Positions 10,643 through 46,792 of a DNA stretch of 48,765 nucleotides are shown piece after piece (position 1 is the stretch's first letter; every line of letters begins with the position of its first letter). This DNA comes from a virus (lineage: Duplodnaviria > Heunggongvirae > Uroviricota > Caudoviricetes), in the IMG/VR virus record IMGVR_UViG_2877982868_000002. One strand, written 5' to 3'. The notes under the pieces were generated by a model, which made no database searches, had not been told where the DNA came from, and worked only from the letters and a program-made list of their open reading frames with translations. Made by a program: the position numbers and the translations under genes.

Positions 10643-10891
10643 ATGAGTAGAAGAGAAGTTTCAGATCACGATTGGCCGCCTGAAATCATCAAGGCGCGCT
10701 TACACATGGCTGGCTTATCACTGCGCTCTTTATCTTTAAAGGCTGGTTACAGCAGGGATTCGCTGAAAAGCGTATTACGTACTCCTTGCCGACCGTATCA
10801 GCAAATAATTGCTGATGCTCTTGGGGTATCGCCTGAAGAAATCTGGCCCAGTCGATACCAGGTTAAGAGCTATATGAGAAAGGCGTCATGA
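10643..10891 (+). CDS. ner: Ner-like DNA-binding protein (Ner/Nlp family)
   Basis: 82 aa; motifs SLRSLS..GYS..SL...L..PCRPYQQIIADALGVSPEEIWPSRYQ match Mu Ner; first gene of rightward early operon. Confidence 0.85.
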   Translation: MSRREVSDHDWPPEIIKARLHMAGLSLRSLSLKAGYSRDSLKSVLRTPCRPYQQIIADALGVSPEEIWPSRYQVKSYMRKAS

Positions 10892-10892
10892 T

Positions 10893-12983
10893 ATGTATGT
10901 CATTGCAAAAGAACTGATTGGCGCGCCCGGAATGCCTGCTACAACAAAAGGTATTCGCCAGGCATTACAACGTTACGTACAAGGGAAAAGCTGTTGTTCC
11001 CGTCGTCGCTCAGGCTCTAAAGCAACTGAATACAGCATCGACTGTTTACCTGAAGTGACGCAGCAGGCATTACGTGAACGCTACGCCCTGCAACTGATGA
11101 CGCAAAAAGTCGATGAATCACCGGCTCCGGTGGTGACAAAGGCCAGACGCTCGCCTGCCGTGGTTGATGCGGTGGAGGCATATCGCGGATCACCACAACT
11201 GATGGTCGAACGCCTTAATGCCCTGACTGAAAACCAGCGCCAGGTGGCTGATGCACGAATCGCGATCGTCAGCGAAGTTCTGAAAGTCGCGCAACAACCT
11301 GGTTTCAGCTGTGCGAAGGCTATCCGGTTTATCGTTGACAACCTGGCACGTTCGCAGCTGGACGAGCGCATTGTGGCAATGGTTGAGACGGCGAACGCCA
11401 AAAAGGGAAACAGCCGCGCGTTAAGTGAAATCACGCTGAAACGCTGGATTGCGGCCTTTAACAAGGCGCAGAACGCCGCTGAACGCCTGCTTTTACTGGC
11501 ACCGGGTAAGCGCCAGGAAATAAAAGCCGAAGATATTAACTGGCTGCCCGAATTTCTGGCGCAGTATCGCCAGTCAAACGGCCGACCAATGACCGAGGCT
11601 TACGAGGATTTTGTCGCTGAATGGCAGCACCGGCACGCTGATGAGCCTTATATGCTCGATATCATGCCGTCTTATGACACCATTCGCCGCGCAATGAAGA
11701 AACTGCCGGAAGTGGTGAAACAAAAAGGCCGGGTGACCGGCAGTGAATACCGCCAGCTTGAGGGATTCACGCGCCGCGACTGGTCAAAAATGCCGGTGAA
11801 TTATGTCTGGATTGGTGACGGTCACGGCATGAAGCTGAAATGCGCACACCCGGTTCACGGTCGGCCATTTGCACCGGAAGTGACCTTTGTTATCGACGGT
11901 GGCACGCGCTTTGTGGTGGGCTGGAGCCTTGACCTGGCTGAAAATGTTTTCGCCGTAGCCGGTGCCATACAGCACGGCATTCGCCATCACGGCAAACCGT
12001 TTCTGTATTACTCGGATAACGGCTCCGGGGAAACCGCCGACATCCTGGATAAGGAGGTTGTGGGGATACTGCCGCGACTGGGGATTAATCACCCGACCGG
12101 GATTGCCGGTAACCCGCAGGGACGGGGCATTATCGAACGGCTTAACCGCACATTACCGATGCGCATAGCCCGTAAATACCGCACCTATTTCGGGAAAGGT
12201 GCAGATCGCGAGACGTTACGCAAAACCAACCGCGATTTACGCTCGGCATTTACCGCCCTGCAACAGGGCAAACGGCTGAACGCCCGGCAACAGTCAGCGA
12301 TGCGTGATTTACCGTCCTGGGCTGAACTGATTGATGCCATTCGTGATGGTGTTGAGTGGTACAACAACCGGCCGCACGATGAATTACCGGTGAAGCCGAA
12401 CGGCAAGCATTACAGCCCGGCGGAGTTCAGAAAAAAACGCCTGGCGGAAGAGGACACGGAAATTGAATGGCTGTCCGATGTTGAGCTGCGGGATATGTTC
12501 CGGCCGATGGTGGAACGCCCTGTAAGACGCTGTGAAATACGCTGGCTGAATAATATTTACTACGCGCCCGAGCTGCGTGACGAGCATGGCCGTAAGGTGC
12601 TTATCAGCTATGACATTCATGATGCCGAACGAATTACCGTACGTCGCCTGGATGGCAGCGTGATTTGCGAGGCGGTATGGGACGGTAATAAACGCGAAGC
12701 CTTCCCGGTTAGCGCGGAATACTACAAACAGCAGCAACGCCTTAAAGGCATGCGTAAACGCGCAGAGGAAAAAATCCGTGATGCCGAGGATGAGGTTGTC
12801 AACGTGCTGGAGCACAAGCCGCAGGAGCCCTGGCTGGAAAACATATACCGCCCTGTGGGTAATACGGTGACCGTTCAGCAACCGGTCGCTGACGATGAAC
12901 CTGATGAAGAATACGAGCGTAATTTCCAGCGGGGATTGCAGTTGCTGGAAGCGAAATTAAAAGAAAATGACCCGCTGGCCTGA
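10893..12983 (+). CDS. A: DDE transposase (MuA-like)
   Basis: 696 aa; catalytic-core motifs VWIGDGHG, YSDNGSGE, GIIERLN; position after ner. Confidence 0.9.
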   Translation: MYVIAKELIGAPGMPATTKGIRQALQRYVQGKSCCSRRRSGSKATEYSIDCLPEVTQQALRERYALQLMTQKVDESPAPVVTKARRSPAVVDAVEAYRGSPQLMVERLNALTENQRQVADARIAIVSEVLKVAQQPGFSCAKAIRFIVDNLARSQLDERIVAMVETANAKKGNSRALSEITLKRWIAAFNKAQNAAERLLLLAPGKRQEIKAEDINWLPEFLAQYRQSNGRPMTEAYEDFVAEWQHRHADEPYMLDIMPSYDTIRRAMKKLPEVVKQKGRVTGSEYRQLEGFTRRDWSKMPVNYVWIGDGHGMKLKCAHPVHGRPFAPEVTFVIDGGTRFVVGWSLDLAENVFAVAGAIQHGIRHHGKPFLYYSDNGSGETADILDKEVVGILPRLGINHPTGIAGNPQGRGIIERLNRTLPMRIARKYRTYFGKGADRETLRKTNRDLRSAFTALQQGKRLNARQQSAMRDLPSWAELIDAIRDGVEWYNNRPHDELPVKPNGKHYSPAEFRKKRLAEEDTEIEWLSDVELRDMFRPMVERPVRRCEIRWLNNIYYAPELRDEHGRKVLISYDIHDAERITVRRLDGSVICEAVWDGNKREAFPVSAEYYKQQQRLKGMRKRAEEKIRDAEDEVVNVLEHKPQEPWLENIYRPVGNTVTVQQPVADDEPDEEYERNFQRGLQLLEAKLKENDPLA

Positions 12984-13054: not shown

Positions 13055-13987
13055 ATGACTGATATTAACGATGTAATCAAGACCATTGATGAACTTATTG
13101 ATGGCGGCGTACTGACACAGTATGCCATCGCCAGAGAGGCGGGAATTTCCGACGGCACATTATCGGCTTTCCGTAAGGGAAAATATAAAGGCGATAACGC
13201 TGCTGTGGCTGCTTCCCTGCGTTCCTGGTATGAGAACTGGAATAAACAAAGCGCACTGCCGGAACCGCCGCAGTTTGTGGAAACGCAGACAGTCCAGGAG
13301 CTGCGCACACTGTTTCAGGCGGTTCGTCTGATGGGCTGTATTAACGTTATTGTGGGCGTACCGGGTGTGGGTAAAACGGCCACTGCCCGTAATTACTGCC
13401 AGGAGCAACCAAACACCTGGATGATCACCCTGTCACCCGCGCACTCCAGCGTCACGGAGTGTCTGCTGGAGCTGGCCGATGCGCTGGGGATTGATTACAC
13501 CCGCGCGAACAAAGGGGCATTATCCCGCGCCATCCGCCGTCGCCTGATGGGAACGCGTGGACTGGTGATTGTGGATGAGGCGGATCATCTTGGTATTGAC
13601 GGTCTGGAGCAACTCCGGGCAATTCAGGACGCCACGGGGATCGGGATGGTGCTTATTGGTAACCCGCGCGGATTGTTTAAAGGTGGACGCCGCGCCTTTG
13701 ATGATTTATCGCGCCTGTTCAGCCGTCTTGCCCGTACAAAACAACTTCGCAAGGCCAAAAAGGCGGATGTGCTGGCCATTGCCAGGGCGTGGGGGATCAG
13801 TGGTGAGGCCGAGCTGGCCGTCATGCAGGCTATCGCTGAAAAGCCGGGAGCGTTACGCGTTCTGACACATACGCTTAACCAGGCGTGGCTCACCGCCAGC
13901 GGTGAAGGTGCGGCGCTGACAGAAAAACATATTAATGCGGCCTTTAAAGAGGTTTATACCAACCCTGAATTACTCTCACAGGTGTGA
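13055..13987 (+). CDS. B: Transposition target-DNA activator ATPase (MuB-like, AAA+)
   Basis: 310 aa; Walker A GVPGVGKT, Walker B-like LVIVDEAD; directly after transposase. Confidence 0.85.
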   Translation: MTDINDVIKTIDELIDGGVLTQYAIAREAGISDGTLSAFRKGKYKGDNAAVAASLRSWYENWNKQSALPEPPQFVETQTVQELRTLFQAVRLMGCINVIVGVPGVGKTATARNYCQEQPNTWMITLSPAHSSVTECLLELADALGIDYTRANKGALSRAIRRRLMGTRGLVIVDEADHLGIDGLEQLRAIQDATGIGMVLIGNPRGLFKGGRRAFDDLSRLFSRLARTKQLRKAKKADVLAIARAWGISGEAELAVMQAIAEKPGALRVLTHTLNQAWLTASGEGAALTEKHINAAFKEVYTNPELLSQV

Positions 13988-14479: not shown

Positions 14480-14761
14480 GTGAAAAAAAATCTCATTGCA
14501 TGGGCGTGGTCGAGTGGTCTTATTGAGTTTGGTTACGTCCTGCCGGAAGGTGCATTGCCGATAGTTGCCGGAAAGCCTGCCACGGTACGGCATGTGATTG
14601 AGGTTATGGCGCGTCATGGACGTGATGAACAGGAGCAGTTACTGGTTCCGGGGATACCGGAAGCGGTGACGGAGGAAGAAGCCTTTAATGCCATGATTCG
14701 GTTCTGCCGTGAGGTCAGACGCCGGGTCAGTTATCCAAACAGAACGAGGACCAGAGGATGA
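14480..14761 (+). CDS. Hypothetical early protein
   Basis: GTG start at 14480 preceded by ggaggtg; 93 aa; tightly packed in operon. Confidence 0.45.
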   Translation: MKKNLIAWAWSSGLIEFGYVLPEGALPIVAGKPATVRHVIEVMARHGRDEQEQLLVPGIPEAVTEEEAFNAMIRFCREVRRRVSYPNRTRTRG

Positions 14762-15030
14762 GTAAAGTCGTACGCATTATTTTCGAATACAAGGAGCACG
14801 TTATCCATAAAAACGCGGATGGAACAGTGCGCATGGGGATAAGTCTGGACATACGTTCAACCGGGATAAAGCAGAAAGGTGATGGACCTGCCATGATTTT
14901 TGGGGTGGTTATGCTCGCGGAAAGCAGAGACTTTGCTGAACTTGTGGCAATGAAAGCCAGTGCGCTCATGAAAGATATGAGCATGCGTTCCGGGGTTATT
15001 AAAGGTAATGAATTTAATCAGCAGGGGTAA
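14758..15030 (+). CDS. Hypothetical early protein (paralog 1)
   Basis: 90 aa; N-terminus MSKVVRIIFEYKEH shared with next gene. Confidence 0.45.
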   Translation: MSKVVRIIFEYKEHVIHKNADGTVRMGISLDIRSTGIKQKGDGPAMIFGVVMLAESRDFAELVAMKASALMKDMSMRSGVIKGNEFNQQG

Positions 15031-15034
15031 TTCC

Positions 15035-15328
15035 ATGAGCAAAGTACGCGTTATTTTTGAATTTAAGCATGTTTCGCATGACGAAAAACCGGCAGGCAAT
15101 GACTGTGTTGAAGTGCATGAAAAGATTGGTGTGGATGTAAAAACAGAACGTGATACGAATAACAGGCCGACGTCACTCTGTGACGTTTATGTAAGTATTC
15201 TCCAGTATCACAGTCCTGAAATTATTCAGTTTCTCTCAGCGGAATTTCAGGCATCTGTACAGGCTTTTGGGGCGGATGCCATCATTAAACGCCACCGCGT
15301 GCATAAAGCATCAGGCACACTGCAATAA
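15035..15328 (+). CDS. Hypothetical early protein (paralog 2)
   Basis: ATG at 15035 (MSKVRVIFEFKH...), 97 aa; N-terminal similarity to preceding ORF. Confidence 0.45.
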   Translation: MSKVRVIFEFKHVSHDEKPAGNDCVEVHEKIGVDVKTERDTNNRPTSLCDVYVSILQYHSPEIIQFLSAEFQASVQAFGADAIIKRHRVHKASGTLQ

Positions 15329-15339
15329 GGAAAAACAAA

Positions 15340-15870
15340 ATGGCAAAACGCGTTACAAAATTAAAGGCCGCAGCCGAGGCTGCACCGCAGACCCGCGAAG
15401 AGGTCAGCCGCGATATCCGCACCCTGGGCGATATTCAGCGAGAGGCGCTGCGGCTGGAAACGGCGATGAATGATGAAGTGGCAGAAATCACCGCCCGTTA
15501 TACGCCGCAAATTGAAAACCTTAAAAAAGAAATCAAAGTGCTTTTTAAGGGGATTCAGGACTGGTGCAAAACCAACCGAGATGAGCTGACGAACGGCGGC
15601 AAAACAAAAACTGCCAATCTGACCACCGGCACGGTGTCATGGCGGCTGGGAAATCCATCATGCAGCGTCAGCCGTGATGTGGAAGGCGTGATTGAAATGC
15701 TGCGCCTTATGGGGCTTGAGCGATTCATCCGCACGAAAGAGGAAGTGAACAAGGAAGCCGTCCTGGCGGAGCCGGATGCGGTGAAAGGCATTGCCGGTAT
15801 AAAGGTGAATAAAGGCGCTGAAAGTTTTTATGTCGAGCCTTTTGAACAGGACGCCGGACTGAATAAATAA
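15340..15870 (+). CDS. gam: Host-nuclease inhibitor Gam (Mu Gam-like, DNA-end binding)
   Basis: 176 aa; strong similarity pattern to Mu Gam (TREEVSRDIRTLGDIQRE..., WRLGNPSCSV); SD upstream. Confidence 0.85.
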   Translation: MAKRVTKLKAAAEAAPQTREEVSRDIRTLGDIQREALRLETAMNDEVAEITARYTPQIENLKKEIKVLFKGIQDWCKTNRDELTNGGKTKTANLTTGTVSWRLGNPSCSVSRDVEGVIEMLRLMGLERFIRTKEEVNKEAVLAEPDAVKGIAGIKVNKGAESFYVEPFEQDAGLNK

Positions 15871-15967: not shown

Positions 15968-16510
15968 ATGGCATATTTTTATTTCAAATTAGACATAGTG
16001 TACACAAATAAATATTTAACCGAATATCAGCGGGATGTTTTACCGCTACGCAACAGTATTCTTCGGGCATTACTGAAAAATACAGGCGCTGCCGGATTGC
16101 GCTTAAAGCCGTTCGCCATGGACGTAATCAGTGAGTTTTATTTTTCTGGTTCTCTGCCTGCGGGCTGGCGTAAGCGCGATGATGTGGCTTTTATCGGGGG
16201 CGGACCGTGCTTTATTGCCAGACCTGATGAGTCATGCCCTGAAGGTCCGGCGATTGCCGCAATGGTTGAAGCCGCTGAACGCGAGTTAAGAAAGCGTCCT
16301 GATTTCCTTGTCTGGCTCTGTGAAAAGCTGGGGGTAATGAGAATCCCCTCCATGTTTAACACGGACTCCTGGTGGACCCCGTCACTCTCCCGTGATGCCC
16401 TGTGCGTGGTGTTTAAAGTAGGAACTTATGGCAGGGAAATAAAAGGGGGTATTCCTGAAGAATGCCAGGAGATTAAACATTCTGAATATGTGGCGCTGAC
16501 GGAGGAATAA
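15968..16510 (+). CDS. Hypothetical protein (semi-essential region)
   Basis: 180-aa ORF with SD aaggaa; AT-rich region. Confidence 0.45.
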   Translation: MAYFYFKLDIVYTNKYLTEYQRDVLPLRNSILRALLKNTGAAGLRLKPFAMDVISEFYFSGSLPAGWRKRDDVAFIGGGPCFIARPDESCPEGPAIAAMVEAAERELRKRPDFLVWLCEKLGVMRIPSMFNTDSWWTPSLSRDALCVVFKVGTYGREIKGGIPEECQEIKHSEYVALTEE

Positions 16511-16513
16511 TTC

Positions 16514-17047
16514 ATGATTGATGCAAAAGTGCTTGAAGGGGTTAAAAACTGGCTGCGTATTTACGGACGTCTGACCTGCGGTATTCTGGCTGAAAAAATG
16601 AATATGCCGCCATCCTCCATGGTTTATTTTCTGCGTGATGCGGTTGATGCAGGCGTGCTGACGGAATGTAACGGTTTTTATGATATTCCGCGTCCCCGCC
16701 CGGTGCAGCCGGTTCGTCGCAAATGCAGCCAGGAGTCTGCGGCTGATGATGTTCAGTGGTGCAGCTTCAGAAAATCCCTGCCGTGGATTGAAGGGCATGA
16801 TATTCCGTCGATGGCGTGGGAATTTGCTCAGGGCGTGCTGACCTGTGAAACCGTTTATGTGGTGGCTGAAGTTGATGAGCAGGCCATGAAAGAAGGCGTG
16901 CCCCAGTTTGTGATGTCGTATATCGACATCCGCCTGGGCGTCATTATCTGCGGTTTAAGCGGCTGGAATATCACCTCGCGCGTTCTGCGTTACCTGATTG
17001 TTGACCGGACGGCCGCGCCTGCCGGGATATCAGCGGAGGTGGCGTAA
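16514..17047 (+). CDS. Hypothetical protein (semi-essential region)
   Basis: 177-aa ORF tightly coupled to upstream gene. Confidence 0.45.
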   Translation: MIDAKVLEGVKNWLRIYGRLTCGILAEKMNMPPSSMVYFLRDAVDAGVLTECNGFYDIPRPRPVQPVRRKCSQESAADDVQWCSFRKSLPWIEGHDIPSMAWEFAQGVLTCETVYVVAEVDEQAMKEGVPQFVMSYIDIRLGVIICGLSGWNITSRVLRYLIVDRTAAPAGISAEVA

Positions 17048-17562
17048 TGTTCTTTAAAACATCAAACCCTTCCGCGCTGGCTGCGTGGCAAAAATACCAG
17101 CAGGACTGCCAGACGGTAAAAGATGAGGCGAAACGCCTTGAGGCCGTGCTGAATGTTGCGTGCCGGTCGGTATTTGAATTCAGTATCAGTGGTTTTTGTT
17201 TTAAGGGACTGCGTTTTACGGAGGACAAATATCCTTTTCATCGTGATTTATGGCGAAAACCAACTGCGTCGAATGGCTGGAGCTGCACACCGCGCACATC
17301 ACGTATTCCCAAAGCCCTGCGCGTTGCCTCTGACGAACTTAACAGTCTGTGGCGTGAATATTCGCCCGTCACGTATGCCAGAACCGATGCACTGTTGTTC
17401 TGGCTGGGCATTGATTTCTCGGCAATCCTGTTTGGCCCTGTGGAGTGGTTCTGCGTTGACGATGTGATTTACCTTCAGTGCGGCGTAAAACCCGCAAAAC
17501 AGAAAATGACCGAAATTCTGTCTGATGAGTTTTATGCTGCTGAAAAGCGAGTCAGGGGGTGA
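17047..17562 (+). CDS. Hypothetical protein (semi-essential region)
   Basis: 171-aa ORF; start overlaps previous stop. Confidence 0.45.
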   Translation: MFFKTSNPSALAAWQKYQQDCQTVKDEAKRLEAVLNVACRSVFEFSISGFCFKGLRFTEDKYPFHRDLWRKPTASNGWSCTPRTSRIPKALRVASDELNSLWREYSPVTYARTDALLFWLGIDFSAILFGPVEWFCVDDVIYLQCGVKPAKQKMTEILSDEFYAAEKRVRG

Positions 17563-17565
17563 TGC

Positions 17566-18117
17566 ATGATGATATTACAACCCATGGGGAGAAAAGGCCG
17601 TGCACCCGCTCATGTTCGCGCATGGACACCTGAAGAAGATGCGCTGCTGATTGCGCTTTATCCATCCACCCCGGTTAAGGATATTGCTGTCAGGATAAAA
17701 AGAAGTTTCTGGGGTGTACATAACCGGATTGTTTTATTACGCGGTACTTACCCGGAGTTGCTCAAATGCAAACGCCTCAGATTTAAACCTGATGAAGATA
17801 AATTTATCCGAAAAAATGCCAGAACAATGACCGGTAAGCAAATAGGAGAATATCTGGGGCGAGACCGGGATTCTGTCCACAATCGGGCGCGATATATTGG
17901 CGTAAGCATGAAAAAATACGGAGAGTTGCTGCCCTTCACCCGCATACCTGACGATGATGTTCGTCTTATTCGTGAATTACGGGATGCTGAATCACCACGG
18001 CGTCTTACCTTTAGGGAAATCGGCGAGAAATTTGAATTATCCGAGGGCACGGTGAGTTTTATTTATCACCGTCGTCGGACTGCCGAAGATGTTGTATTAC
18101 GGGAATTAATGCCATGA
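17566..18117 (+). CDS. Hypothetical DNA-binding protein with three internal SANT/Myb-like HTH repeats
   Basis: 183 aa; three ~45-aa repeats with pattern .PEEDxxLI...K.IA..I.RS...VHNR (WTPEEDALL, FKPDEDKFI, IPDDDVRLI). Confidence 0.5.
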   Translation: MMILQPMGRKGRAPAHVRAWTPEEDALLIALYPSTPVKDIAVRIKRSFWGVHNRIVLLRGTYPELLKCKRLRFKPDEDKFIRKNARTMTGKQIGEYLGRDRDSVHNRARYIGVSMKKYGELLPFTRIPDDDVRLIRELRDAESPRRLTFREIGEKFELSEGTVSFIYHRRRTAEDVVLRELMP

Positions 18118-18425
18118 TAACGACATTATTTGTTGAATCAGATGAACCCCTTGTGTGTGCCGTCGGAATGCCGGTCTGTGGCGGAACGCTGACCGGTGTT
18201 TATTTCGGGGATTTGCGCGGTTATCCCTGGCATTCACTGAATGATGCTTTCCCGCCTGATATGGAGGCTGTCGTGCTGATTGTTCAGTATGGTGACCAAC
18301 AGGAACTGCGCATCGGCCATATGGGGTATGAAGGCTTTTTTATTGATGAAGAAACCGGAGCCTGCCTTGAAGATGAGGACGGACAGGTGACGCACTGGTG
18401 CCATATTTCAGCTTTACCGGAATGA
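18114..18425 (+). CDS. Hypothetical small acidic protein
   Basis: 103-aa ORF, D/E-rich; start overlaps previous stop. Confidence 0.45.
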   Translation: MITTLFVESDEPLVCAVGMPVCGGTLTGVYFGDLRGYPWHSLNDAFPPDMEAVVLIVQYGDQQELRIGHMGYEGFFIDEETGACLEDEDGQVTHWCHISALPE

Positions 18426-18439
18426 CGGGAGGTGAATGC

Positions 18440-18790
18440 GTGAGAAGTTATATTGATAATGAAAAACTGAAGACAATCAGCGACTGTCTTAGCTTGCTGG
18501 CAAAAATAAAAGAAACCATTGAAGAGATTAAATTTCAGCTTGAATACGAACCCTGTGGCGATGATACATGGCGTAACTCTGCCAGAAAAGCACTGGCTGT
18601 CTTTCAGAAACAACGCCGGACTGTTGAATACCGCCTTGCTGTATTGCGCCAGGAGGAAAAGGAAAGAAATATAAGACGTCATGAACTCGTTAATGATTTT
18701 CTTGTTCGTGAATTAAAGGAGCGTGTGCCGGAGTCGGTATTTTTTGAGTGTGAGGCTGTTGCCCGTAGCAAAGCACTGGAAACTGATTAA
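18440..18790 (+). CDS. Hypothetical protein
   Basis: GTG 18440 preceded by gggagg SD; track ORF begins 18398; predicted coiled-coil-like. Confidence 0.4.
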   Translation: MRSYIDNEKLKTISDCLSLLAKIKETIEEIKFQLEYEPCGDDTWRNSARKALAVFQKQRRTVEYRLAVLRQEEKERNIRRHELVNDFLVRELKERVPESVFFECEAVARSKALETD

Positions 18791-18802
18791 ACAGGCAGGT
18801 GA

Positions 18803-19138
18803 ATGATGAGTATTGAATTAAGATCGTCTTATGAATATCGTAAAATTCTCATCGCCGGAGGCATGAAACCGGAAGATGCAGAAAAAATTGTTTCTTTTAT
18901 GGATAAAGAATGTGACAAACGGGATATGCCAGAAATTATTATGGATGACATGATTCTGCATTCAGCCGTAGCGTTAAGCCCGTTATGGATTGTGCATTCT
19001 CTTGCTGAAATTGCCAAAGGCACCGATAAACAGGCAGCTGTTGCTGCCCTTCAGACGCTTAATGAAATGCGTATATCTCCACGCCCGACATTAATACATA
19101 TGATTCTCTCCAGTATGGAGGATAAAGCAAATGAATAG
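18803..19138 (+). CDS. Hypothetical small acidic protein
   Basis: 111-aa ORF with SD. Confidence 0.45.
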   Translation: MMSIELRSSYEYRKILIAGGMKPEDAEKIVSFMDKECDKRDMPEIIMDDMILHSAVALSPLWIVHSLAEIAKGTDKQAAVAALQTLNEMRISPRPTLIHMILSSMEDKANE

Positions 19139-19328
19139 TCTACCCGCTGGATGGGCGCGGCCACTAATGGCCAGGAAGCATCATTTTTTTAAAACAGGCG
19201 AAAATATCAGTATATGTGGACGGTGGTTATATCTGGCTCATAATCGCGAGCCGGATACATTTGAAAGCCCTGATGACTGTGCCGAATGCCGCAGAAGAGT
19301 GAATAAGGAGAAAGATAATGGACAATAG
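19131..19328 (+). CDS. Hypothetical small Cys-containing protein
   Basis: 65 aa; C..C spacing (CGRW...CAEC) suggests zinc ribbon. Confidence 0.35.
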   Translation: MNSLPAGWARPLMARKHHFFKTGENISICGRWLYLAHNREPDTFESPDDCAECRRRVNKEKDNGQ

Positions 19329-19614
19329 TTCTCTGTTGTTCTGGTGCTTATATATCACATCCTTTTTCGGCGCATTTGTTATTACCCGGTGGTTATGTCG
19401 AAAAATCATCTGCTTTTTTGATAAAAGACATCCGGTTGAACGGGCGGCTGATGCGCTCATTCAGCAGGCCATTGTGTTATATAGCGGTGAATTTTTCTGC
19501 CGAATAACAACCAGAGATGGCTGGCACATAATGATTATTCCACCAACACACCATGCCCGGTGGGATGAGGCAGAAAAGGCTTTCCATGTCCGTAAAAAGG
19601 TAAATACGGTATGA
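19318..19614 (+). CDS. Hypothetical membrane protein
   Basis: 98 aa; N-terminal hydrophobic helix LLFWCLYITSFFGAFVI. Confidence 0.4.
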   Translation: MDNSSLLFWCLYITSFFGAFVITRWLCRKIICFFDKRHPVERAADALIQQAIVLYSGEFFCRITTRDGWHIMIIPPTHHARWDEAEKAFHVRKKVNTV

Positions 19615-20120
19615 GAGGAAAACTGATATCCGCCATTCATGTGGCAAAGCGCGAGCTTGCCCTGGATGATGAGACTTATACATCCGCGCTGCTGGCAGCC
19701 ACCGGCAAAACCAGCTGCCGGGATATGTCACCGGATGAGTTATCCCGCGTGCTGGATGTTTTCAAAAAACGCGGTTTTAAAGTGCGCCAGAAGCCGGTTA
19801 ACCAGGCCTTAAAACCGGGTACGGTGACCGCCAAAATTCGTGCCATCTGGAGGGTGATGCACCGGCAGGGCTTTATCTCTGATGGTGCGGAAACCGCCCT
19901 TAACCGCTGGGTGAAATCGCAGACGGCCGCGCAGAACGGTGGCGAAGGTGTGGCAAACTGGCAGTGGCTGGAGCAACACCCCGCCCTGGCCTCAGATGTG
20001 CTGGAGCGTCTCAAGCGATGGCACCGCCGCAAAATGCTGGCCGCGATGGGAATGCCCGAACGCACGCTGATGGGGTATGACGCCGTTTGCAGGCAGTATG
20101 AAAAATCACTTCCCCGTTAA
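19611..20120 (+). CDS. gemA: GemA-like regulatory protein (Mu gp16 family)
   Basis: 169 aa; position just upstream of mor; N-terminus MRGKLISAIHVAKRELALDDETY typical of gp16/GemA family. Confidence 0.7.
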   Translation: MRGKLISAIHVAKRELALDDETYTSALLAATGKTSCRDMSPDELSRVLDVFKKRGFKVRQKPVNQALKPGTVTAKIRAIWRVMHRQGFISDGAETALNRWVKSQTAAQNGGEGVANWQWLEQHPALASDVLERLKRWHRRKMLAAMGMPERTLMGYDAVCRQYEKSLPR

Positions 20121-20189
20121 CCCCAAATCCCGCCACAGCGCGGGATTTTTATTTTAAACTTACCGGGAACGCGAGAACCGGAGGCTGAT

Positions 20190-44606: not shown

Positions 44607-46646
44607 ATGACGTCCAAATGGGTTCAACTATCATCAATGCCCGGAAACTTTACTGTTAAAGTTTCCGGTGGTACAGCGGCATTTCTTGAGGCTCCCTTTC
44701 CTCCGGCCGAAACAAAAGGAGGAATGACATTTGCTGACTGTCTCATCAGTTTTAATACACGGGATTGCCTGTGGGTAAGGCCAGTATCCGGTGATCCGAG
44801 TGTGGAAATTACCGGAGCGGGTATTGGTGCGGTCATTCCGTTAAGTGCTGATGTTGCCGGTACTGCTGAACCGTCAGACTGGGATAATGCTGAAACACAT
44901 ACCCGTCCGTCAGGAAATGAAACTGCTTCCAGCTCCCCTTCCTGGTATTACGTGGTGGTTCTTGCTGGTCAGTCAAACGGTATGGCTTACGGTGAAGGTC
45001 TGCCACTGCCGGAGACATATGACCGCCCCGAACCGCGTATTATGCAGTTAGCCCGTCGCAGTACAGTCACGCCGGGAGGTAAAGCCTGTCAGTATAACGA
45101 CATCATTCTGGCCGACCACTGTCTGCATGATGTGCAGGATATGAGTGGAAAAAATCACCCGAAAGCGGATGTGGCTAAAGGGCAATATGGCACCGTGGGT
45201 CAGGGGCTTCACATTGCCAAAAAACTGCTGCCGTTTATTCCGGCAGATGCGGGGATTCTGCTGGTTCCCTGCTGCCGTGGTGGTTCTGCATTCACGGCGG
45301 GTGCTGACGGCACGTACAGTGACAACACGGGTGCTTCAGAGGACTCAGCCCGCTGGGGTGTGGATAAGCCGCTGTATAAGGACTTAATCAGCCGGACAAA
45401 AGCGGCACTGGCGAAGAACCCGAAAAACCGCCTGCTTGCTGTGGTGTGGATGCAGGGCGAGTTTGATATTGATGCGAAGCCGACGGAGCATTCCGCGCTG
45501 TTTCTGGCGATGGTGGAAAAATTCCGCGCAGACCTGGCTGAACAGGCGGAACAGTGTACCGGTGGCAGTGCTGCTGGCGTTCCGTGGATTTGTGGCGATA
45601 CCACGTATTTCTGGAAACAGAAAAATGAACCGGCATACCAGGCAATCTATGGCGGCTACAAAAACAAAACAGATAAAAACATTCATTTCGTTCCATTAAT
45701 GACAGATGAAAATGACGCGAATGTACCCACCAACAATCCGGCAGAAGACCCGGATATTGAATCCATTGGTTATTACGGCTCAACGTGGCGTAACAGTGCC
45801 GCCACCTGGACATCTGCGGACCGGGCCAGCCATTTCAGTTCATGGGCACGTCGTGGGATTATTTCCGACCGTCTGGCCACGGCAGTTCTGACTCATGCGG
45901 GGCGAACCACAGTAAAAGCCGATGTTCCATCTTCTGAAACTGAAGCACCAGTGCCGTCACCTTCAGAAACTGAAGCAGTAACCACAACACTGCTGTCTTA
46001 TCGTGTCAGTGAGTCAGAAGGAAATCTGAAAGCCCAGGGCTGGGAGCCGGCTGGCGGTAAAGCTGAAATTATCAGTGATGCAGGAGGCACAGGTGGTAAG
46101 GCAATGAAACTGACCAAGGAAACAGGTAAATCATCTTGGTATCTGGATCATGATGCCGGTACTGGTGCTGAACTGCTGAAAAATGGTGGTTTAATCAGTT
46201 GTCGTTTTAAAGTACCTGGCGACCTGGTGGCAAACCAGTATGTCATGGGGCTTTACTGGCCGGTTTCCTCTCTGCCGCAGGGTGTCACCCTGACAGGGGA
46301 TGCAGGGAATAATCTGCTGGCATCGTTCTACATCCAGACAGACGCAAAAGACCTGAATGTGATGTACCACAATGCAAAAGTGGCAACAAATAACCAGAAA
46401 CTGGGAACCTTTGGTGCATTTGATAATGAATGGCATACGCTGGCCTTCCGTTTTGCAGGAAATAACAGCCTTCAGGTTATTCCGGTTATTGATGGTCAGG
46501 ATGGTGCCGCGTTTACCCTGACGCAGTCACCAGTAGGAACTTTCCCGGTGGACAAACTCCGCGTAACGGATATCACAAAAAATGCAACTTACCCGGTGCT
46601 GATTGACAGCATTGTGGTGGAAGTGAAAAAAGCGGTAACAGAATAA
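44607..46646 (+). CDS. Multidomain carbohydrate esterase, SGNH/SASA-like (candidate sialate O-acetylesterase, NanS-p-like) with C-terminal putative glycan-binding domain
   Basis: 679 aa; VVLAGQSNGMAYGEG motif typical of SASA/SGNH esterases; Ser/Thr/Pro linker with SETEA duplication; located in cargo position between gin and com. Confidence 0.55.
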   Translation: MTSKWVQLSSMPGNFTVKVSGGTAAFLEAPFPPAETKGGMTFADCLISFNTRDCLWVRPVSGDPSVEITGAGIGAVIPLSADVAGTAEPSDWDNAETHTRPSGNETASSSPSWYYVVVLAGQSNGMAYGEGLPLPETYDRPEPRIMQLARRSTVTPGGKACQYNDIILADHCLHDVQDMSGKNHPKADVAKGQYGTVGQGLHIAKKLLPFIPADAGILLVPCCRGGSAFTAGADGTYSDNTGASEDSARWGVDKPLYKDLISRTKAALAKNPKNRLLAVVWMQGEFDIDAKPTEHSALFLAMVEKFRADLAEQAEQCTGGSAAGVPWICGDTTYFWKQKNEPAYQAIYGGYKNKTDKNIHFVPLMTDENDANVPTNNPAEDPDIESIGYYGSTWRNSAATWTSADRASHFSSWARRGIISDRLATAVLTHAGRTTVKADVPSSETEAPVPSPSETEAVTTTLLSYRVSESEGNLKAQGWEPAGGKAEIISDAGGTGGKAMKLTKETGKSSWYLDHDAGTGAELLKNGGLISCRFKVPGDLVANQYVMGLYWPVSSLPQGVTLTGDAGNNLLASFYIQTDAKDLNVMYHNAKVATNNQKLGTFGAFDNEWHTLAFRFAGNNSLQVIPVIDGQDGAAFTLTQSPVGTFPVDKLRVTDITKNATYPVLIDSIVVEVKKAVTE

Positions 46647-46792
46647 AAAAATCCCGCCGGTCATGATATGGCTGGCGGGAGCTACCTAACCCATAAAGGA
46701 AAATAAAAATACTCCCGAAGGAGTGGTTATCAGTCGCTTCGATGTTTTTACCCGATAACGAATTATGTAGTCAATATCAAAGGTAAGGTTAT

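Follow-up and report, generated by a model that had tools for sequence, protein, structure and literature searches.

Early-region accessory genes of temperate phages are the source of many inhibitors of host processes. In phage Mu, the semi-essential (SE) early region is co-transcribed with A and B, includes host-lethal functions and tolerates deletion, and the functions of its genes are largely unknown (PMC3325207, PMC3820752, PMC4553209). In Escherichia coli O157:H7 Sakai, the Mu-like prophage Sp18 is reported to be apparently intact and to have its DNA packaged (PMC2669165). Here we analyzed a block of nine small open reading frames (ORF1 to ORF9) at positions 15968-19614 of a viral DNA stretch of 48,765 nucleotides (IMG/VR record IMGVR_UViG_2877982868_000002; this whole stretch is called the window). 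The block covers the stretch between gam and gemA in a transposable, Mu-like prophage of Sp18 type in E. coli O157:H7, and its nine genes form this part of the predicted semi-essential early operon.

The position of the block is that of a Mu-type SE region: B and gam lie on one side, gemA and a Mor/C-like gene on the other, and the genes are on the early-operon strand. Homologues of Mu SE genes are also found inside it, as ORF2 corresponds to gp11, ORF3 to gp12, and ORF4 belongs to the PHROG family of gp9. Comparison with relatives divided the nine genes into an invariant group (ORF2-4) and six that are exchanged (ORF1 and ORF5-9). The probable interpretation is that a conserved core working on DNA or transcription is combined with exchangeable host-binding cassettes in one co-transcribed Mu-type early operon.

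The nine genes and their coding status

The genes of the block are as follows.

15968..16510, plus strand: ORF1, 180 amino acids, isoelectric point (pI) 6.0, variable cassette; phrog_2260, E 1.9e-71
16514..17047, plus strand: ORF2, 177 amino acids, Mu gp11 homologue (67% identical), core; Pfam Gp11_C, 132.8 bits (cutoff 27)
17047..17562, plus strand: ORF3, 171 amino acids, Mu gp12 homologue (55% identical), core; phrog_2314, E 7e-84
17566..18117, plus strand: ORF4, 183 amino acids, pI 10.2, basic predicted DNA-binding protein, core; phrog_323 'transcriptional regulator, D5-like', E 6e-58
18114..18425, plus strand: ORF5, 103 amino acids, pI 4.05, net charge -16, variable cassette; phrog_6925
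18440..18790, plus strand: ORF6, 116 amino acids, 20% D+E and 20% K+R, variable cassette; phrog_6158, E 1.8e-57
18806..19138, plus strand: ORF7, 110 amino acids, pI 5.2, variable cassette; phrog_1988
19131..19328, plus strand: ORF8, 65 amino acids, with Cys29 and a C-x2-C motif, variable cassette; phrog_2358
19318..19614, plus strand: ORF9, 98 amino acids, N-terminal transmembrane segment at residues 4-24, variable cassette with divergent alleles; phrog_17269

The same nine coding sequences, 100% identical, are present in RefSeq record NZ_CP062769.1, where eight are named 'hypothetical protein' and one 'DNA-binding protein'. Two start sites differ from those in a mechanical ORF list. ORF7 begins at 18806, and for ORF6 we preferred the GTG codon at 18440 to the start at 18398, because GGGAGGTG lies upstream of it and the PHROG alignment begins at residue 15 of the longer version. 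Gaps between the block genes range from -11 to +15 nucleotides, with five start/stop overlaps (17047, 18114-18117, 19131-19138, 19318-19328 and 19611-19614).

The G+C content (GC) of the block is 0.472, whereas the early genes upstream have 0.522 and positions 19611-42000 have 0.569, and only 0.4% of prophage windows of equal length are as AT-rich. The bias is graded: GC is 0.502 for ORF1-3, 0.462 for ORF4 and 0.444 for ORF5-9, so that a deviation of the kind used to recognize accessory cassettes is seen when ORF5-9 are set against the 19611-42000 region. The charge of the products also varies, from ORF5 (net -16) and ORF7 (net -5) to the strongly basic ORF4, the rest being neutral or basic.

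Each ORF matched a PHROG family at E < 1e-30, but only ORF2 (Gp11_C) and ORF4 (helix-turn-helix) obtained a functional label when Pfam, PHROGs, NCBIfam and PADLOC were searched, the other families being described as 'unknown function'. No enzyme family was matched by the block products in Pfam or NCBIfam, and a PDB sequence search with the concatenated products and an ORF5 family profile returned nothing below E = 0.4. In the literature, we found no paper naming the RefSeq accessions of these proteins. The original prediction, which was made from the DNA letters, had described nine small genes tightly packed on one strand with overlapping stops and starts, more AT-rich than their flanks, without enzymatic motifs and belonging to a Mu-type semi-essential early region; all of this agrees with the annotation, the composition, the family searches, the gene order and the Mu homology. 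It had also named an outcome that would count against it, namely that all products are conserved Mu early proteins of housekeeping function. This is not the case, because seven of the nine products have no Mu homologue.

Could these ORFs be annotation artefacts in an AT-rich spacer, that is, decaying or non-coding filler? Most products (all but ORF2 and ORF4) bear only the public names 'hypothetical protein' or 'uncharacterized', and some of the families are tiny. However, comparison with seven E. coli variants gave ratios of nonsynonymous to synonymous polymorphism (pN/pS) of 0.00-0.25 for ORF2-9 (0.12-0.15 for ORF2 and 0.09-0.21 for ORF3), and these are therefore real genes under purifying selection, which effectively refutes such an explanation. 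The PHROG matches, Shine-Dalgarno-like motifs 5' of the starts and reading frames intact in hundreds of genomes also contradict it. We consider it hardly credible, and all nine genes, including ORF1 with its pN/pS of 0.62-0.68, appear to be real. There was no Rfam match in the block and there were no meaningful repeats, so a hidden RNA element or repeat array could be ruled out. Two long antisense ORFs occur on the minus strand, at 16382-16798 (138 amino acids, over ORF1/2) and 18284-18682 (132 amino acids, over ORF5/6); they are probably spurious, because they are absent from RefSeq and the sense genes are under purifying selection.

An invariant core and exchangeable cassettes

To define close relatives, we used the 27 IMG/VR sequences whose Gam is at least 93% identical (individual relatives are designated below by L numbers). 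ORF2, ORF3 and ORF4 were all present in 27 of the 27. In contrast, ORF1 and ORF5-9 showed at least 10 patterns of presence and absence, each of them being missing from some relatives, and the junctions of the exchanged segments were sharp (15986/16505 and 18124/18790). Variable presence with sharp borders, as would be expected of exchangeable cassettes, is thus a property of these six genes and not of the core.

The core probably acts on DNA or transcription. ORF4 has three helix-turn-helix modules (Myb/SANT-like, helix-turn-helix and sigma-70 region-4-like), with sub-threshold Pfam matches to Sigma70_r4, HTH_AsnC, MarR_2, HTH_11 and Myb, and the N-terminal half of ORF2 is a putative winged-helix, DNA-binding domain. 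It is possible that the block, and ORF1-4 above all, provides the classical semi-essential Mu functions of the arm, cim and gem type, which boost replication or modulate immunity or expression. The identity of ORF2 and ORF3 to their Mu counterparts, the invariance of ORF2-4 in close relatives, the DNA-binding motifs of ORF4 and the predicted DNA-binding half of ORF2 are consistent with this idea, as is the occurrence of one Mor/C-type activator only, so that another regulator may be needed. However, ORF2-4 are absent from 74 more distant Mu-like phages that keep Gam, and in many cases also GemA, and therefore they are not general requirements of this lifestyle. Such a role also leaves the rapid turnover of ORF1 and ORF5-9 unexplained, and the literature found does not establish that arm or cim is gp11 or gp12; no paper on the function of Mu gp11 or gp12 was found. 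As an account of the block, this proposal is tentative and, in our view, somewhat unlikely.

The variable genes differ in their distribution. ORF1 is 40.6% identical to an SfMu protein (RefSeq 'DUF5420 family protein') and 36-38% identical to proteins of Yersinia Mu-like phages. It has no counterpart in Mu, and its segment (15986-16505) is missing, as in Mu, from L006, L051 and several IMG/VR relatives. Seven of its approximately 14 amino-acid changes fall in residues 10-23 (window 15968-16040), beside the cassette junction at 15986. The elevated pN/pS could reflect either a recombination tract or diversifying selection; we did not take it as a sign of positive selection, since the clustered changes near the junction fit a recombination tract at least as well.

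ORF6, whose fold we read from the sequence as probably helical, has homologues of about 40% identity in the unrelated siphophages Fraca, AsXd-1 and SaltyDalty, and is swapped out jointly with ORF5 in many relatives. Homologues of ORF7 (34-36% identical) were found only in SfMu and Yersinia Mu-like phages, and none in Mu; its AlphaFold2 (AF2) model, built from a 12-sequence alignment, has six helices at low confidence (predicted local distance difference test, pLDDT, 54.4). ORF8 is possibly a zinc ribbon. Small proteins of this family are widespread in phages: tblastn matched 197 phage records, and Pseudomonas phages, PB1 and F8 among them, account for 167 of these. A scan of ORF8 against Pfam, including Lar (PF14354), gave no match at E up to 0.1, whereas a protein from the corresponding slot of L054 scored 34.3 bits with Lar in the same scan. 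ORF9 (Kyte-Doolittle 19-residue maximum 1.82) is known only from these Mu-like inserts and is replaced or divergent in L005, L006, L049, L050 and L051.

Several exchanges could be followed in individual relatives. ORF5 and ORF6 (18124-18790) are exchanged for a 61-amino-acid protein with two transmembrane segments in L004-L006. In the Mu-like insert of the Shiga toxin (Stx) phage record LC727881, an Stx2c phage, ORF4 and ORF5 are both present but separated by two additional small genes (L002:10167-10552), one for this same 61-amino-acid protein and one for a 74-amino-acid acidic protein; because they sit there, the junction after ORF4 (window ~18113-18131) appears to be a repeated insertion point. 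L051 has still other genes in the slot. In L049 (E. coli strain 102651), ORF8 and ORF9 are exchanged for a reverse-strand DUF2513 gene (5609-6019, minus strand), which parallels the reverse-strand gp15 of Mu at the same position and could be expressed from the prophage.

Outside this group, the distant set of 74 sequences comprised 42 Mu-like prophages from other species together with 32 viral contigs of greater distance. Gam is kept in all of them and GemA in many, and their gam-gemA slots contained none of the nine ORFs; a single ORF8 match was located upstream of gam. The distance between gam and gemA is 3741 bp here and 1908 bp in Mu; across 26 other Mu-like prophages it varied between 51 and 5096 bp, with a median of 1.4 kb. 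Because the core is invariant, the cassette patterns are variable, the nine ORFs are absent from distant slots and the distance varies, the slot is best described as a hot spot of variable size with a lineage-specific core and fast-moving cassettes.

We also scanned the slot proteins of the relatives with Pfam and PHROG models. Recognizable cargo included DUF2786+DUF7168, HU-type DNA-binding proteins, RdgC, an HNH endonuclease with ORF4-like helix-turn-helix modules, a reverse transcriptase, a SutA RNA polymerase-binding domain, a YfbR-like HD hydrolase, DUF5131 and a 'host nuclease inhibitor' PHROG. The HU, RdgC, HNH, reverse transcriptase, SutA and YfbR-like proteins, and a Lar protein described next, are of kinds that work on DNA, nucleotides or transcription, or against restriction. 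The remaining slot proteins were mostly without annotation. In L054 (Gam 54% and GemA 51% identical), a Lar-family restriction-alleviation protein is encoded at L054:5061-5294 (34.3 bits, cutoff 28.6); its gene adjoins that of the gp11 homologue, and an ORF5 homologue follows two genes later. This gene is the only tie of the slot to a known anti-defence family, and the tie is one of position only. The largest slot, of 5.1 kb (L009:7489-12585), holds a reverse transcriptase (RVT_1; phrog_1423; ORF ~10880-12270) and two Lcl_C-domain proteins, which may be cargo of a defence type at this location. In L054 and L056, proteins of 165-167 amino acids (L054:4143-4637 and L056:390-890), encoded 5' of the gp11 and ORF5 homologues, have a sub-threshold MazG-like signature; the E value is only 0.043, and we did not accept it as more than a lead.

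ORF5 and a possible role in anti-defence

DUF551 is a portable and often acidic domain that occurs in Ea22 variants of Stx phages and in YfdS (PMC10834534). The UniRef name for the exact ORF5 sequence is 'DUF551 domain-containing protein'. In ORF5 and 13 family members, hmmscan found no match to Pfam DUF551 (PF04448) even at E up to 10, and a profile search of a large protein database for annotated DUF551 proteins returned only members of the ORF5 family. The relationship was therefore tested through E. coli K-12 YfdS, which is a DUF551 protein according to previous studies (PMC4776307, PMC10834534). YfdS matched Pfam DUF551 (22.2 bits, cutoff 22) and the ORF5 family phrog_6925 (E 7e-13) over the same residues, 50-117, and hhalign aligned the ORF5 family profile with YfdS (probability 81%, E 1.3e-5), pairing ORF5 residues 41-103 with YfdS residues 51-118 and covering the terminal V/ITHW...P..PE motif. 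On the strength of these YfdS matches, ORF5 residues 41-103 are assigned as a divergent DUF551-type domain.

ORF5 consists of two modules, the DUF551-like one and an N-terminal one (residues 1-38) that also occurs in other Mu-like early regions. The latter is joined to a different C-terminus in L011, and the ORF5 homologue P0019 shares it with a slot protein of a Gilliamella Mu-like prophage (58% identical over 33 residues, E 1.3e-9) that has a different C-terminal part. The family is tiny: a word-indexed search found 16 clusters and an exhaustive search of 1.84 billion representatives gave 15 matches, from Escherichia, Salmonella, Serratia and a few metagenomic sequences. Distant homologues (29-35% identical) in L054 and L056 lie directly after the Gp11_C gene and before gemA; because of this synteny with gp11, the ORF5 family may be an old, syntenic but dispensable component of the early region in this clade.

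The original prediction had regarded the block as accessory cargo and its uncharacterized genes as candidates for host takeover or anti-defence, and had singled out the small acidic products at 18114-18425 and 18803-19138 as resembling DNA-mimic anti-restriction proteins. The cargo part holds for the six exchangeable genes and fails for ORF2-4, which are invariant and of which ORF2 and ORF3 are gp11 and gp12 homologues; the candidate status is likewise reasonable for six of the nine genes, and its anti-restriction component had been drawn solely from charge. Small size with a strong acidic excess is a feature of ORF5 (17.5% D+E and 1.9% K+R), but ORF7 shows it only weakly. As for DNA mimicry itself, Pfam, PHROG, PADLOC, NCBIfam and PDB searches matched no product to an anti-defence family, and the acidic ORF5 turned out to be of DUF551 type.

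Nevertheless, at least one cassette protein, with ORF5 as prime suspect, might act against a host defence, for example by inhibiting a type I restriction enzyme through DNA mimicry or as a decoy. The block is presumably expressed early and adjoins Gam, a host-nuclease inhibitor; ORF5 is highly acidic; the cassettes turn over quickly among near-identical phages; and the slots of relatives contain the Lar_restr_allev gene of L054 and, in two other cases, the 'host nuclease inhibitor' PHROG. On the other hand, none of the nine proteins matched ArdA, Ocr, KlcA/ArdB, Lar or another anti-defence family in Pfam, PHROGs, NCBIfam, PADLOC or PDB sequences, and PADLOC component models gave only chance-level matches (E >= 0.0096). 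DUF551 has no reported anti-defence role, the acidity of ORF5 is shared by Ea22 C-terminal domains (PMC10834534), ORF7 is mildly acidic at most, and no paper on anti-defence in the Mu early region was found. An anti-defence function of the cassettes is thus unlikely, and that ORF5 in particular is a nucleic-acid mimic or decoy seems improbable.

Structure prediction did not change this assessment. The AF2 model of ORF5 (14-sequence alignment) was all-beta at low confidence (pLDDT 57.5), and with neither this model nor that of ORF7 did a Foldseek search of the PDB reach an E value below 1. As both families are tiny, the underlying alignments had little depth, and the resulting models were too poor to inform on DNA mimicry either way. 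A more specific proposal is that ORF5 is a two-module acidic protein, made in the first minutes of lytic growth, which binds and neutralizes a host DNA-directed enzyme (a restriction or repair nuclease, or a nucleotide-pool sensor), and that ORF6-9 are further unrecognized inhibitors traded among Mu-like, PB1-like and other phages. We consider it quite unlikely, but if true, it would give DUF551 its first function.

Proposed expression and function of the block

Directly 3' of gemA we detected a strong hairpin that resembles an intrinsic terminator.

20125..20148, plus strand: intrinsic-terminator-like hairpin, 9-bp stem followed by TTATTTT

A pattern scan of the block found 9 promoter-like matches, all weak, compared with 12.5 expected in shuffled sequence. 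None of the cassettes is enclosed by a consensus promoter and terminator, and adjacent genes overlap, so the block lacks the own promoter and terminator of a classical moron. From the head-to-tail early orientation, the absence of a bracketing pair, the hairpin after gemA and the biology of Mu, we infer co-expression at lytic onset. On this view, a transcript that starts at the early promoter when lytic growth begins would carry ner, A, B and gam together with the nine genes, and would probably end at the hairpin. The overlap of start and stop codons suggests that translation of neighboring genes is coupled.

Alternatively, expression of the cassettes in the lysogen might protect or change the host, for example through a role of ORF9 in superinfection exclusion. 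The transmembrane anchor of ORF9, the alternative 61-amino-acid cassette with its two transmembrane segments, the AT-rich composition and the reverse-strand genes in the slots of some relatives (DUF2513 in L049 and the reverse transcriptase in L009) are compatible with this, and in Mu lysogens there is low-level Pe transcription across the SE genes (PMC3820752). However, all nine genes run in the direction of the repressed early operon, with overlaps between them, and, unlike classical morons, they have no convincing internal promoter or terminator. A benefit to the lysogen is therefore doubtful.

Position, operon-like architecture, the homology of ORF2-4, mosaicism, purifying selection and the relationship of ORF5 to DUF551 are the observations behind the interpretation that we favor, in which a core is combined with cassettes. 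In this interpretation, ORF2-4 would serve as regulators of phage or host genes or as accessory factors for transposition and replication. ORF1 and ORF5-9 would be shuffled by recombination at gene boundaries among Mu-like phages, and some of them also with unrelated phages. Most likely, the cassettes would be non-essential binders of host components that tune takeover, host killing or counter-defence; candidate binders are the acidic two-module ORF5, the charged ORF6, the putatively helical ORF7, the Cys-containing ORF8 and the membrane-anchored ORF9.

Several points weigh against this interpretation. Co-transcription, non-essentiality and every biochemical activity of the nine genes are inferred, and because seven of the nine genes have no Mu counterpart, knowledge of Mu transfers to them by position only. 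Given the synteny of its distant homologues with gp11, ORF5 may be an old component of the lineage and not free cargo. The high pN/pS of ORF1 could reflect a recombination tract instead of an arms race, and the low-confidence models speak neither for nor against a binder role. Still, host-takeover or anti-defence proteins may reasonably be sought in this block, and the search for inhibitors is now narrowed to six fast-turnover cassettes beside the invariant ORF2-4. If any cassette inhibits defence or repair, it would represent a new family and perhaps provide a function for DUF551.

Prophage context and neighboring genes

According to the RefSeq annotation of NZ_CP062769.1 and the composition profile, the window contains two nested prophages. 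Their main features outside the block are as follows.

Window 1 to ~9500: lambdoid prophage late genes, GC ~0.6
~9.7 kb to the window end (~9700-48765): Mu-like prophage, inserted in the lambdoid tail-assembly T gene
13055-13987: B, 49% identical to Mu B
15340..15870, plus strand: Gam (57% identical to Mu Gam), host-nuclease inhibitor, which borders the slot on the left; RefSeq 'host-nuclease inhibitor Gam family protein'
19611..20120, plus strand: GemA/gp16 homologue (43% identical to Mu GemA), which borders the slot on the right and closes the predicted early operon; RefSeq 'gp16 family protein'
20190-20615: Mor/C-type activator, 39% identical to Mu C and 27% to Mor

The gene order of the Mu-like prophage is a repressor-like gene (minus strand), a ner-like helix-turn-helix gene, transposase A, B, five small ORFs, Gam, the nine ORFs, GemA/gp16, the Mor/C-type gene, lysozyme and late genes. 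Its insertion interrupts the gene for the lambdoid tail-assembly protein T (window 9490-9672), which RefSeq marks as partial. The portal gene of the flanking lambdoid prophage (window 4260-6844) is annotated in RefSeq as frameshifted, and for this reason the lambdoid prophage may be defective even without the Mu insertion. Two Stx-converting phage records (LC727881 and LC727895) annotate the same phage type as 'inserted Bacteriophage Mu-like phage', and at least 80% of the block is covered in 192 of 5426 complete E. coli genomes (~4%), with many O157:H7 and other Shiga toxin-producing strains among them.

The single activator of the Mor/C family is located after the early terminator-like hairpin and directly 5' of the lysozyme gene, and the separate mor, gp18-20, C arrangement of Mu is absent. 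ORF4 is a candidate for switching on the promoter of the Mor/C-type gene.

Two adjacent early ORFs, at 14758-15030 and 15035-15328 (90 and 97 amino acids), have near-identical N-termini (MSKVVRIIFEYK and MSKVRVIFEFK; 17 residues, E 0.033) and may represent a diverged tandem duplication. BLAST gave no support for the N-terminal module of ORF5 as a paralogue of these ORFs. A second cargo site is found at window 44633-46672, where a gene for a 679-amino-acid DUF6645 protein is followed by small DUF1378 and DUF826 genes; it is flanked on one side by the gin-like recombinase of the invertible tail-fibre segment and on the other by com and a mom-like gene at the right end.

Comparison with known systems

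The closest described system is the SE region of Mu (gp11-gp15, gam to gemA), which has the same position, strand and operon context, is bordered by homologous Gam and GemA, and corresponds to the block through ORF2 and ORF3 (gp11 and gp12 homologues) and through ORF4, which shares its PHROG with gp9. The functions there are likewise unknown (PMC3820752, PMC3325207). The Mu slot is half as long, and gp13, gp14 and gp15 are absent from the block, which has ORF1 and ORF4-9 from other PHROG families instead. Mu also has the reverse-strand gp15, whereas the block has no reverse-strand gene. The gp9-type helix-turn-helix protein is doubled in length here and follows the gp12 homologue, whereas in Mu it precedes gam.

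The Mu-like inserts in LC727881 and LC727895 and, by its published description, Sakai Sp18 are of the same phage type and host lineage. LC727881 has the whole block at 95.5% identity, but with the two extra genes described above. Compared with Sp18 and the Stx-phage inserts, the insertion site is different, being here the lambdoid T gene.

For ORF5, the relevant comparison is with DUF551 proteins, such as YfdS of CPS-53 and the C-terminal domain of Ea22 variant V2, which like ORF5 are small, acidic, modular and encoded in early or accessory regions of temperate phages (PMC10834534, PMC4776307). However, ORF5 falls below the Pfam threshold, and where YfdS and Ea22 have coiled coils, it has an unrelated N-terminal module. 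The DUF551 relationship names the domain of ORF5 and explains no mechanism. The lambda exo-xis or b-region (ea22, ea8.5, orf60a) consists, as the block is predicted to, of small, early, non-essential, mosaic genes of a temperate phage that affect host physiology and the lysis-lysogeny decision, and in some variants the DUF551 module is common to both (PMC10834534). Nevertheless, lambda belongs to another phage family with another replication strategy, and there are no homologous genes beyond the DUF551-like domain.

T7 Ocr, ArdA and Lar of the Rac prophage are small and expressed early, as is predicted for ORF5, which has an Ocr/ArdA-like acidity, and a true Lar-family gene is present in the L054 slot. 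However, none of the block products has sequence or profile similarity to them, and the low-confidence model of ORF5 gave no fold match. Ocr and ArdA are largely helical, whereas ORF5 is predicted, with low confidence, to be all-beta.

By these comparisons, the block appears to be an ordinary accessory region of a known type, the SE region of transposable phages, and a moderate pool of candidates. It has already been sequenced and annotated in a widespread prophage and holds little surprise for a phage biologist. To the known systems, this analysis adds that the block separates into core and cassettes, that ORF5 is built of two modules, one of them of DUF551 type, that there is evidence for the reality of all nine genes, and that one relative has a Lar gene in its slot.

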